A DNA stretch of 64,000 bases, from positions 6,839 through 70,838 of the forward strand of contig CAWAEF010000015.1 of assembly GCA_963780985.1 (NCBI GenBank). The letters are read 5' to 3'. Shown here in pieces: positions 18,708 to 42,021 of the stretch. The notes below the pieces were generated by a model that saw nothing but the letters and a program-made list of their open reading frames with translations, had not been told where the DNA came from and searched no databases. The position numbers were made by a program, and so were the translations under genes. The DNA is from an uncultured Alphaproteobacteria bacterium. Its GTDB lineage: Bacteria; Pseudomonadota; Alphaproteobacteria; JAGOMX01. Within the stretch, counting starts at the first letter, position 1, and every line of letters begins with the position of its first letter.

Positions 18708-18886
18708 AGAGAAACCGGAAGATAGAAACCAGAAACCAGAAACCAGAAACCAGAATTTAGAAACTAGAATCCAGAAACCAGAGTCCAGAACATGGATTTT
18801 GAATACTGGTTTCTGGATTCTAAATTCTGAATCTTGAATTCTAAATTCTGTTTTCTGTTTTCTGGATTCTGGATTCTGGATTCTGA
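18708..18886. repeat. Heptad-repeat hairpin family C, copy C1
   Basis: The left arm is tandem GAAACCA/GAATCCA units and the right arm is tandem TTTCTGG/ATTCTGG units. It fills the ybaB-recR gap. Confidence 0.9.
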
Positions 18887-18888
18887 TA

Positions 18889-19482
18889 ATGACTGACTTA
18901 CAAAACCTAATCGATCGATTGGCTAGGCTGCCGGGCTTGGGGCCGCGTTCTGGGCGTCGGGTTGCTTTGTATTTGCTGAAAAACCGGGGGGATAAGCTCA
19001 AGCCCTTGGTGGATGCTTTGCAGAAGGCTGATGAGAAGCTGACCGATTGTGCCGTTTGTGGCAATCTGGATACGGAAAATCCTTGTTCCATTTGTACGGA
19101 CGTGAAGCGGGATCCTACGGTTTTGTGCGTGGTTGAAGGGGTTGCCGACTTGTGGGCGGTTGAACGCTCGGGCTGTTATCGTGGTCATTATCATGTATTG
19201 GGCGGGACACTTTCCGCTCTCGAAGGGGTGCGTCCCGAAGATTTGCGCATTAGAAGTTTGGTGACGCGGGTTCAACAAAACAATATCCAGGAAGTCATTC
19301 TAGCGCTGAACGCCACGGTTGATGGACAAACCACGGCCCACTACATCATCGATCAGCTGGACCATATGCCCGTCCAAGTCACGGCCTTGGCTCAAGGTGT
19401 GCCGTTGGGTGGGGAGCTGGACTATTTGGATGATGGTACACTGCTGACGGCTATGAATTCTCGGCGTAAGATGGGTAGTTAG
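18889..19482 (+). CDS. recR: Recombination protein RecR
   Basis: C4 zinc finger CAVCGNL..CSIC and a Toprim domain. Confidence 0.95.
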
Positions 19483-19626
19483 GGTTTTAAATCATTAATT
19501 ATGCCCCAGCCCCCGTCATCCTTCACTACCTCTCGCTTCGCGGTCGTCCGTTCAGGATGGCGTTTGCCGGGGGCAGACGATTACATTCAACCCACCCGTT
19601 TTGCATAGGAGCCGGGGTACTTTTTA

Positions 19627-39954: not shown

Positions 39955-39978
39955 CTATATAGCAAGGAATCTAACATA

Positions 39979-41865
39979 ATGTTATACTGCTCTCAAAACA
40001 AAACAGGGAATTTTTTTATGTCTTCTCATCAAAAGTCAGAGCCCGAGCATCCTTTTGCTTGTCCACCGGAAGAATTAATGAAGATGTCCCAAGAATTCTG
40101 GGCACTCAACAAGGAGATACAGGATTTCTTGGCGGCTTCATCAAAGCCTGATAGTCCAGCTTTTGCGTCTTCGCAGCAGGTTCTGAATTTCATGGGTCAT
40201 GGACAAATCTTCCTGGATGCTTATCAAGAATTGCTCGAAAGGCCTGAGCAAATCAAGGAAGCCACGGAAAAACTCATGGCTGATTCCTTTCAGTTATGGC
40301 AAAGCAGTTTGCAGAACATGGGGGCAATAAGCTCGACGCCCGTGATTTCGCCCGATGTGGGGGATAGGCGGTTCAAGGATCCTCTTTGGGGGGAAAATCC
40401 GCTGTCGTCTTATCTCATGCAGGCCTATTTGCTCTACGCCCGCTGGATAGATTCCGTGGCCGAGGACTTGGAAGGGTTGGATGATGCATCCCGGCGCAAG
40501 TTCAAGTTCTATTCAAGACAATTTGTGGACGCGGTGGCGCCTAGCAATTTTGCTTGGGCTAACCCCATGGTTGTGAAGAAAACTCTGGAAACCAATGGGG
40601 AAAACCTCATTAGTGGTATGCGGAAATTCCTGGAGGACCTGAAAAATGGCACGTCTCTGGTCAATATAGAAAATACCGACCGAGGAGCATTTAAGATCGG
40701 GAAGGATCTGGCAAGCACCCCCGGCAAAGTTGTCTTTCAGAACGAGATGATGCAACTGATTCAATATCAACCTACTACCAAAAAGGTAAAGAAGACCCCC
40801 CTGTTGGTGGTGCCGGCTTGGATTAACAAGTTCTATATTCTTGACCTTCATCCAAAAAATTCTTTTGTGAAGTGGTTGGTGGATCAGGGTAATACGGTCT
40901 TTATTATATCCTGGGTAAATCCTGGTCCCGCTCTTAAAGATACCCCTTTCGAGGATTATCTGAAAAAAGGTTCATTAGAGGCTATCCGGGTGATGCAGGA
41001 AATTACTGGGGAGGAGTCGGTTAATCTGATTGGCTTTTGTTTAGGTGGCATATCTTTGTCCATGTTGCTGGGGTACCTGCAGAAGGACGCCAAGAAGATG
41101 ATTCAATCTTTGACGCTGATGGCCGCTCCTTTGGATTTTTCTCAAGCGGGCGAGATGACCATTTTTACGGATCGAGATTATTTAAAAACAGTCGCCAGTC
41201 GTATGGACGAGCTTGGACTCCTGGACGGGCCTGCCATGGGTGCCACTTTTAATTTGCTGCGCGCTAATGATCTGATCTGGTCAGCTTTTATCAACAATTA
41301 CTTGTTGGGTAATGAACAAACTCAGTTCGATATGCTGTACTGGAATGCGGATACGACGAACCTGCCTGGCAACATGTTTAATTTCTATATCCAGGAAATG
41401 TTCGTCAAGAATGCCATTATGAATCCTTGTCAAACCCAGATGATGGGGCGTGATGTAGATATATCCAAGGCCGAAGTCCCCGTGTTTTTGTTCGGTGCTC
41501 ATGATGATCATATTGCACCCTGGAAGAGCATGTATGCGGCCATTCCTAAACTACACGGCCCTGTAAAATTTGTCTTGGGCGCTTCAGGGCATATAGCTGG
41601 CGTGGTGAATCCTCCTCAGCTCAATAAATATGGCCATTGGGAGAATGATGACTATGCCCAAGATGCGGCGCAATGGTTGAGTCAGGCCAAATATAGCAAT
41701 GACTCCTGGTGGCTGACGTGGGCTAAATGGATCAAACAATTCCCGGACACAGAAATCGATGCCAGTGCTAGAATTCCGGGTTCAGCTGGATATAAGGCTC
41801 TTGAGGATGCGCCAGGTTCGTATGTGTTAGTTACTTCAGACCAGGCCTTGCGTGGCAAGGGCTGA
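39979..41865 (+). CDS. phaC: Class I poly(R)-hydroxyalkanoate synthase
   Basis: Lipase box GFCLGG and a conserved alpha/beta-hydrolase C-terminal half. The true start may be ATG 40018 (MSSHQK). Confidence 0.9.
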   Translation: MLYCSQNKTGNFFMSSHQKSEPEHPFACPPEELMKMSQEFWALNKEIQDFLAASSKPDSPAFASSQQVLNFMGHGQIFLDAYQELLERPEQIKEATEKLMADSFQLWQSSLQNMGAISSTPVISPDVGDRRFKDPLWGENPLSSYLMQAYLLYARWIDSVAEDLEGLDDASRRKFKFYSRQFVDAVAPSNFAWANPMVVKKTLETNGENLISGMRKFLEDLKNGTSLVNIENTDRGAFKIGKDLASTPGKVVFQNEMMQLIQYQPTTKKVKKTPLLVVPAWINKFYILDLHPKNSFVKWLVDQGNTVFIISWVNPGPALKDTPFEDYLKKGSLEAIRVMQEITGEESVNLIGFCLGGISLSMLLGYLQKDAKKMIQSLTLMAAPLDFSQAGEMTIFTDRDYLKTVASRMDELGLLDGPAMGATFNLLRANDLIWSAFINNYLLGNEQTQFDMLYWNADTTNLPGNMFNFYIQEMFVKNAIMNPCQTQMMGRDVDISKAEVPVFLFGAHDDHIAPWKSMYAAIPKLHGPVKFVLGASGHIAGVVNPPQLNKYGHWENDDYAQDAAQWLSQAKYSNDSWWLTWAKWIKQFPDTEIDASARIPGSAGYKALEDAPGSYVLVTSDQALRGKG

Positions 41866-41890
41866 CAGGATATCCTGATAGTATACTAAA

Positions 41891-42021
41891 ACAGAATCCA
41901 GAATCCAGAAACCAGAAACCAGAAACCAGAGCTACTTGCTCGGAACTGTGGCGCTGGATTCCGGCTTCTGGATTCTGGATTCTGGATTCTGGCTTCTGGT
42001 TTCTGGATTCCGGATTCTGTT
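41891..42021. repeat. Heptad-repeat hairpin family C, copy C3
   Basis: CAGAATC x2 and CAGAAAC x3 face nine CTGGATT/CTGGCTT/CTGGTTT units. Lies between phaC and hisC. Confidence 0.9.

Follow-up and report, generated by a model that had tools for sequence, protein, structure and literature searches.

The DNA analysed here (the window) is a stretch of 64,000 nucleotides from an uncultured alphaproteobacterium (contig CAWAEF010000015.1, positions 6,839 to 70,838), in which three gene junctions carry long hairpins whose two arms are tandem arrays of the heptad CCAGAAW and of its reverse complement WTTCTGG. The hairpins lie at 18708-18886, 31152-31270 and 41891-42020, between the genes for YbaB and RecR (site 1), an HprK-like protein and FlgH (site 2) and a class I PhaC and HisC (site 3). 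The flanking genes of the three sites have no function in common, and two of the junctions are co-directional while the third is convergent. These are the genes named in an earlier description made from the letters without database searches (hereafter the sequence-only reading), and the hairpins with heptad-array arms that it reported at three sites were confirmed using Tandem Repeats Finder (TRF), pattern counts and folding. The features are as follows.

18708 to 18886, no strand: heptad hairpin 1, lying between ybaB (stop, 18702) and recR (start, 18889), absent in relatives
18715 to 18791, + strand: left arm of site 1, 11 CCAGAAW-type units, mainly CCAGAAA, with TTAGAAA and CTAGAAT variants (unit parse, TRF)
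18796 to 18886, + strand: right arm of site 1, 13 WTTCTGG-type units, mainly ATTCTGG (unit parse, fold)
31152 to 31270, no strand: heptad hairpin 2, where the HprK-like open reading frame (ORF) and flgH converge, overlapping the end of the HprK-like ORF
31152 to 31228, + strand: left arm of site 2, 8 heptads followed by three to four copies of the 12-nt sub-repeat CAGAATCCAGAT, 11 unit-equivalents in all
31236 to 31270, + strand: right arm of site 2, 5 units, with an ATTCTAG unit that mirrors CTAGAAT of the left arm
41891 to 42020, no strand: heptad hairpin 3, lying between phaC (stop, 41865) and hisC (start, 42050)
41891 to 41932, + strand: left arm of site 3, 6 units (ACAGAAT, CCAGAAT, CCAGAAA three times, CCAGAGC)
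41951 to 42020, + strand: right arm of site 3, 10 units (ATTCTGG, CTTCTGG, TTTCTGG and ATTCCGG variants)

Period-7 arrays in the 64 kb window are confined to these three sites, with TRF reporting 6-13 copies per arm. The (CCAGAAW)2 dimer CCAGAAWCCAGAAW, allowing up to two mismatches, matched 43 times in the window against 2.56 expected from dinucleotide shuffles, with 38 of the 43 matches falling inside the three sites; a candidate fourth array at 53320 consists of two units within coding sequence and looks like chance. As RNA each site is predicted to fold as a single long imperfect hairpin, with energies of -83.4 kcal/mol at site 1 (z = -9.5), -58.0 kcal/mol at site 2 (z = -6.4) and -81.2 kcal/mol at site 3 (z = -10.4), each z score being relative to dinucleotide shuffles. 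The arms are unequal, as had been claimed, with 11-12 units facing 13 at site 1, 8 heptads and a 12-nt-period stretch facing 5 units at site 2 and 6 facing 10 at site 3. The gap between them is 4-18 nt (4 nt at the tip of site 1, 18 nt at the centre of site 3) and the three centres have nothing in common. Left arms consist mainly of CCAGAAA and right arms mainly of ATTCTGG, such that many heptads face each other with an A.A mismatch at the seventh position, and variant units are mirrored between the arms, CTAGAAT with ATTCTAG and TTAGAA with TTCTAA. With the units of each arm in shuffled order the folds reached -77 against the native -83 kcal/mol at site 1, -44 against -54 at site 2 and -67 against -75 at site 3, a cost of only 7-10 kcal/mol indicating that the stability comes mostly from the presence of two complementary arrays. 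The proposal that each hairpin can pair in many registers is therefore plausible as regards stability, with the qualification that the native order is modestly better than a shuffled one (z -1.5, -2.4 and -1.75 for sites 1-3). In hairpin 2 the period CAGAATCCAGAT replaces the heptads at 31181-31230 (4.0 copies, 92% matches) and forms small internal hairpins of its own in the predicted fold. The three hairpins, which make up 0.67% of the length of the window, hold 28 of its 224 GANTC sites (12.5%), a density of 39-107 per kb vs 3.5 per kb window-wide, the T-variant of the unit containing this motif; GANTC is the CcrM methylation motif of Alphaproteobacteria. Other tandem repeats in the window (37131-37175, 37809-37866 and 57432-57577) have periods divisible by three (9, 12/24 and 18 nt), lie in ORFs and are probably coding repeats unrelated to the heptads.

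The fit of the hairpins to the gene junctions is close. The description of the elements as filling whole intergenic gaps applies to site 1, where hairpin 1 occupies a 186-nt gap with 5 nt spare on the ybaB side and 2 nt on the recR side. It does not extend to site 3, which leaves some 25-29 nt on either side including the hisC ribosome-binding site, or to site 2, which is not wholly intergenic in that the HprK-like ORF (30717-31256) reads into the hairpin; on the other side a single nucleotide separates the right arm from the flgH stop. The last ~34 residues of the HprK-like ORF (ESESGNQILESRIQNLESRSESRSESRFRILDSGF) together with its stop codon are encoded by the repeat of hairpin 2, in keeping with the earlier explanation of odd peptides by translation through a 7-nt repeat, and the HprK C-terminal domain (Hpr_kinase_C) is matched over residues 6-81 only. 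Both variants of the heptad unit are free of stop codons in all six frames, as read from the sequence, which explains the spurious and extended ORFs at such arrays, including the HprK-like ORF that runs into hairpin 2. The extended 179-aa HprK-like product has been annotated by gene callers in other assemblies as well (L135; loci and contigs are given here by L numbers). At the phaC/hisC junction (window 41866-42049), a relative with 71% identical HisC (P0125 contig) has between the two genes a 676-aa gene with no Pfam match; in the window phaC and hisC are neighbours and hairpin 3 occupies their junction, so that the position of the element coincides with a rearrangement or deletion.

Comparison with strains of the same species and with more distant relatives addresses whether the hairpins are real, whether they are stable and how they arrived. 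Short-read contigs of the species repeatedly end within the heptad hairpins (L122, L123, L133, L136, L137), as is usual for sequence of this kind, and this would be in keeping with assembly artefacts of low-complexity sequence, an alternative that the sequence-only reading itself raised. Against this, full-length identical or nearly identical copies are found in independent assemblies from other samples. In L121 (JGI) site 1 has the same length and the same unit number with three point substitutions, in L135 (ENA) site 2 is base-identical within a contig that is 99.66% identical over 8.7 kb, and L133 is identical to site 3 over the covered part, which is most of the site. The artefact explanation is thereby ruled out, its remaining probability being negligible.

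The same strains bear on the suggestion that the hairpins are a hypermutable microsatellite-palindrome in which the number of units shifts by slippage. The arms are periodic and unequal, unit-order shuffles fold nearly as well as the native order, and in Xanthomonas the species differ in length at shared sites (PMC4692102). In the window species, however, no change in unit number was seen at any of the three sites among strains 0-2% diverged, albeit in a small sample, which also led us to reject a contingency (phase-variable) simple sequence repeat (SSR). Hairpin divergence equals flank divergence, with the hairpin of L121 being 98.4% identical to that of the window against 98.0-98.3% across 4.6 kb of flanks, and many of the units are heavily degenerate, which suppresses slippage. 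We give the slippage explanation little credence, and the active slippage and copy-number variation read from the unequal arms were not upheld. The sequence-only reading had also staked itself on further copies and on length variation among isolates; further copies exist in many genomes (see below), and no length variation was seen among the strains. The window elements are most likely near-neutral passengers rather than hypervariable switches.

The best named relatives by RecR are Caedimonas and Rhodospirillales-type metagenome-assembled genomes at ~65% identity. Closer relatives with 93% identical RecR (L124/L125) have a ybaB-recR spacer of 27 nt, those with 82% identical RecR (L126-L132) have one of 2-9 nt, and in ~122 kb of DNA from these relatives no period-7 arrays were found. 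The short spacers and the lack of arrays in the relatives indicate that site 1 arose by a recent insertion of ~160-180 nt into a tight operon junction, and it is a lineage-specific insertion. This demonstration of insertion applies to site 1 only, the closest HisC relatives having no conserved synteny at site 3. Contigs extending past the window (L481, L482) contained no further hairpin copies and no S23p gene, the significance of which is explained below. Upstream in the same gene string, the dnaX/ybaB spacer (18237-18369) carries another palindromic insert, unrelated to the hairpins, that measures ~125 nt, has the termini GTTGTAACAACTCA...TGAGTTGTTAAG and folds as RNA at -52 kcal/mol (z -3.7); it occurs once in the window. 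L121, L122 and L123, strains with 98% identity, lack it and have a spacer of 28 nt, and a similar motif, GGTTGTAACA, stands at the end of L481 at a contig break.

Inverted heptad arrays are widespread. A scan for (CCAGAAW)3 with one genome per species returned at least 120 loci, and the counts that follow refer to the 120 loci listed. The phyla among these matches include Acidobacteriota, Verrucomicrobiota, Planctomycetota, Bacteroidota, Nitrospirota, lineages of the candidate phyla radiation (CPR), cyanobacteria and others. Period 7 dominates the arrays at these loci (257 arrays vs 9 of period 6 and 22 of period 8), and more than 100 of the arrays have units other than CCAGAAW. Adjacent inverted pairs with the same unit number 38, with units including AACCATT, AACTGCT, AAGTGAT, AAACCTG, AGGGATG and AATGATG, and the centre differs at every locus. 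For 24 pairs in which both neighbours were called, by crude ORF calling, the context was co-directional in 19, convergent in 4 and divergent in 1, the arrays often lying 2-30 nt from both ORFs. Among CCAGAAW-type pairs the order with CCAGAAW first predominates (23 vs 4-7). In a viral collection CCAGAAW formed 103 stretches and three composition-matched permutations of it formed 28, 12 and at least 120, so that CCAGAAW is one among many array-forming heptads; its presence in many phyla can accordingly be explained by sampling, horizontal transfer not being required. Solo heptad arrays of 20-35 units were also observed (L003, L094, L120, L052, L111 and others), about a third of the solo arrays lying inside long ORFs by the same crude calling, and some of these may encode heptapeptide repeats or act as frameshift-prone tracts.

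In one group of loci (L004, L005, L048, L059, L110; Thermoanaerobaculia and others) CCAGAAA...TTTCTGG pairs surround a small G+C-rich stem-loop with A and T runs beside it, with flanks such as AAAGACGC...GCGTCTTTTTT. These look like bidirectional terminators set within the heptad arms, and the window copies have no such core. The Thermoanaerobaculia pairs, with their G+C-rich stem-loop enclosed between ...AGAAA and TTTCT... (L004, L005, L048, L110), the predominance of the A-rich-first order for the CCAGAAW unit and the location of elements downstream of genes would fit a class of expanded bidirectional terminators or attenuators, in which the A-rich and U-rich flanks of a small stem-loop grew by 7 nt at a time into a product that would still make RNA polymerase pause or terminate. 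For the window this is improbable. None of its three hairpins has a G+C-rich core or a U-tract, the tails reading GATAATG, TTTAGAA and TTTCGGT, and a terminator scan called no site at the full stems. Site 1 moreover lies within the conserved dnaX-ybaB-recR string, where relatives have no terminator, and the use of one unit at three loci is left unaccounted for. A promoter scan gave one promoter-like match per site, arising from TTTAGA/TAGAAT variant units, with no excess over shuffles; sigma-70-like -35/-10 matches (TTTAGA and TAGAAT, 17 nt apart) lie at 31172-31200 (+) and 18845-18817 (-).

Other known kinds of element were considered and rejected. No Rfam family, rRNA included, was found in the window at gathering thresholds, hence there is no insertion in helix 25 or 45 and the hairpins are not 23S rRNA intervening sequences proper; at E <= 1 site 3 gave only generic, sub-threshold long-hairpin (miRNA precursor) matches. 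They are not transposable elements of the miniature inverted-repeat kind (MITEs), since no two centres are alike and neither a conserved core nor common termini nor a target duplication is present. Nor are they repetitive extragenic palindromic elements (REP/REPIN), the arms being 7-nt arrays and no transposase-like ORF recurring among the 120 loci listed. When the 3,077 ORFs of these loci were clustered all-vs-all, in which a RAYT-like partner would have appeared, only common families and one small family, the TIGR02436 'four helix bundle protein', were found.

TIGR02436 is the 23S-rRNA intervening-sequence protein (S23p) family, distantly related to Avd, a protein of diversity-generating retroelements (DGRs). 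At four of five loci (L010, L041, L078, L098) a TIGR02436 gene of ~125 aa is bracketed exactly by inverted CCAGAAW-type arrays. At L078 the host stop codon TAG is followed by (TTTCTGG)3, a ribosome-binding site and the gene, (AACCAGA)3 and then 12 nt to the next ATG, while at L098 the host stop is followed by (CCAGAAT)4.7, the gene, (ATTCTGG)4.7 and 5 nt to the host ATG. By eye, these cassettes fill host gene junctions as the window hairpins do. To remove the heptad bias, 80 TIGR02436 genes were taken from metagenomes (L138-L217) by protein alone. A period-7 array lay within 200 nt of the gene in 66 of the 80, on both sides in 50, and inverted arrays of the same unit bracketed the gene in 38. 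Overall 130 of 178 arrays were within 200 nt of the gene, in 16% of the sequence, which is a ~14-fold enrichment. The arrays are polar, with AGT/GTT in 33 of 63 upstream units and AAC in 5, and ACT/AAC in 36 of 66 downstream units and GTT in none, and their median copy number is 4.6 units. A unit common to two cassettes (allowing one mismatch) was found for 46% of pairs at 70% protein identity or above vs 1-8% below, a correlation between unit and protein matched by none of 500 permutations. The cassette arrays are thus inherited with the gene and have fixed polarity. No paper linking the TIGR02436 family to heptamer repeats was found in the searchable literature. The entries of the two solved homologues (2gsc, 2rld) each contain five chains, and S23p has been reported as a homopentamer (PMC4990558). 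The protein of 2gsc is XCC0516, listed in the table of Rehm et al. with a four-unit array that overlaps its start codon (PMC4692102).

The polarity of the cassette arrays, with GTT/AAC conserved every 7 nt over about five units, the pentameric homologues (PMC4990558) and the covariation of the array unit with the protein all favour the arrays being protein-binding sites on DNA or RNA, recognised by IHF/HU or in trans by an S23p pentamer, with the hairpin potential secondary. Binding by a regulator was proposed for similar arrays by Aklujkar et al. (PMC2700814), and an effect of heptamer repeats on the expression of a reporter is described in a Nostoc preprint. On the other hand no binding protein has been identified anywhere for these arrays and no S23p gene was seen in the contigs of the window species, while the window arms range from 5 to 13 units, many of them degenerate, and are flanked by functionally unrelated genes. 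We therefore consider protein binding possible and rather unlikely as the primary explanation of the window hairpins.

The AAC and GTT of the cassette units also recall integrons, in which the attC core sites are 7-bp RYYYAAC / GTTRRRY boxes. The window elements and cassettes could then be sites of recombination, attC-like or of another hairpin type, that a site-specific recombinase recognises in the form of a folded single strand, and like attC they are imperfect palindromes that follow stop codons and fill cassette junctions. The similarity is one of resemblance only. An attC site has single boxes and not arrays, and no integrase or recombinase recurs near the arrays in the 120 loci listed, making such a role very improbable.

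Taken together, the hairpins of the window are real, strain-stable and strongly self-complementary elements with strand symmetry, inserted at site 1. The interpretation that we prefer, at about even odds (roughly 0.5), is that they are gene-less members of a class of inverted heptad arrays and that they act as transcribed stems, either cut by RNase III or stabilising mRNA ends. The general plan of the class would be (unit)n, a unique centre and (reverse-complement unit)m, occurring in many phyla and with many 7-nt units, with the gene-carrying form bracketing a small gene for a pentameric four-helix-bundle protein (TIGR02436 / S23p). The window elements would have arrived recently as insertions of 120-180 bp in or against gene junctions of this lineage and may owe their origin or spread to whatever process also builds the arrays of the cassettes, one that may involve a pentamer reading about five heptads. 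They would presumably be co-transcribed with the flanking genes and, judging from the predicted folds, would form long stems of imperfectly paired double-stranded RNA. If they behave as the stems of S23p intervening sequences do (IVS; PMC4990558), they may be substrates of RNase III or barriers at 3' ends that uncouple the flanking cistrons.

In support of this interpretation, the window hairpins have the CCAGAAW unit and the inverted plan in common with the L010, L041, L078 and L098 cassettes. L098 is the only cassette that matches the window arm order and it also has the T-variant unit of the window, such that loss of its gene would leave the architecture of site 1. Several observations weigh on the other side. 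No TIGR02436 homologue was detected by tblastn in the window or in the contigs of the same species, the centres measure only 4-18 nt, and an S23p partner acting in trans in this genome is an unproven candidate. The window order, in which the AAC-type CCAGAAW comes first, is the reverse of that in most cassettes, and gene-less pairs with other units also run opposite to the window in 7 of 7 cases; junctions between tandem cassettes were considered as a source of the reverse order and are not supported. The window arms of 5-13 units are longer than the cassette arrays of ~4-5. The 80 genes were the best matches to queries that were mostly heptad-flanked themselves, so the association with arrays holds for one subfamily rather than for TIGR02436 as a whole. 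The scarcity of divergent contexts (1 of 24) is not statistically distinct from the genomic background. Finally, the duplex energies of sense and antisense strands in the 38 cassettes showed no asymmetry (19 vs 18; p = 0.99), and this symmetry means that there is no signal specific to selection at the RNA level. An origin in the DNA, such as terminal repeats produced by copying, is equally compatible with the complementarity.

A bolder version, which we advance tentatively and consider clearly less probable than the interpretation as gene-less stems, is that inverted heptad arrays form the ends, and perhaps serve as recognition sites, of a widespread, undescribed family of small gene cassettes encoding pentameric, Avd-like four-helix-bundle proteins (TIGR02436 / S23p), with one 7-nt unit, of the five or so in an array, for each subunit of the ring. 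The window hairpins, the Geobacter class 3 sites and the Xanthomonas repeats would then be gene-less satellites of such cassettes. If true, this would partly explain the long-known excess of heptamer repeats in bacteria and would give the orphan S23p family a nucleic-acid target. The link to TIGR02436/S23p makes two questions experimentally approachable, namely why 7 nt dominates among long repeats and what role the IVS-encoded proteins play. For annotation, heptad elements are of practical concern in that they extend or create ORFs and break short-read assemblies.

Long SSRs in bacteria are dominated by heptamer units (Mrazek et al. 2007, as cited in PMC4679880), and the hairpins described here, which the sequence-only reading could not assign to a known family, have published relatives. 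Among heptanucleotide SSRs, the short tandemly repeated repetitive (STRR) sequences of cyanobacteria and TAACTGA of Beggiatoaceae (PMC4679880) are likewise 7-nt tandem repeats that are intergenic and often abut start codons, but they are direct arrays, with one inverted case among 170 TAACTGA sets (PMC4679880). The S23p cassettes and the Coxiella IVS (PMC4990558) resemble the window hairpins in having inverted terminal repeats that form a long stem and in being inserted in a transcribed region. They differ in that the window hairpins lack a gene and lie outside rRNA, and in that the window arms are longer and mostly run in the opposite order. The stems that bound S23p in IVS are cut by RNase III (PMC4990558), and such cleavage is known for IVS stems only.

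REP/REPIN, MITE-type and Rickettsia palindromic elements share with the window hairpins the character of short, non-autonomous palindromes at gene junctions that can extend ORFs and are inserted in a lineage-specific manner. The Rickettsia palindromic elements insert in frame. Unlike REP/REPIN and MITE-type elements, the window hairpins lack a conserved core, any terminal inverted repeat other than the arrays, a target-site duplication and a recurrent transposase nearby.

The closest relatives are paired heptamer arrays in two other genera, for neither of which a function is known. Xanthomonas genomes hold ~185 GGGAATC arrays each, most of four units, and in X. campestris and X. axonopodis 70-75 pairs per genome are convergent arrays on opposite strands (Rehm et al. 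2015, PMC4692102). The arrays are mostly transcribed, and co-directional ORFs are their main setting and divergent ORFs a rare one (PMC4692102). They are, like those of the window, paired on opposite strands, and differ in having a G-rich unit studied for G-quadruplex formation, shorter arms and differences in length between species. In Geobacter metallireducens the class 3 predicted global regulator binding sites (Gmet_I301-I308) comprise eight pairs of five tandem heptads (PMC2700814, Additional file 9) with the units ATTCTGA / ATTCTGG / CTCCTGA and the consensus MTYCTGA (Aklujkar et al. 2009, PMC2700814), for which binding of IHF/HU is a proposal only (PMC2700814). As in the window, these arrays face each other on opposite strands in the same plus-strand order and lie between consecutive genes (moaA/mosC, proB/proA), and the unit ATTCTGG itself occurs in the Geobacter sites, WTTCTGG departing from MTYCTGA at the last base. 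The Geobacter pairs have about five units per arm around a unique centre of 40-60 nt, whereas those of the window have 5-13 units around a centre of 4-18 nt. Tandem units, closely spaced arrays on opposite strands, the unit and the junction context of this paired (convergent) heptamer-repeat class are all found in the window, and the window hairpins are new members of this documented and unexplained class. As such the three hairpins provide an alphaproteobacterial example, with unusually long arms, of a class that has been catalogued twice and never explained.

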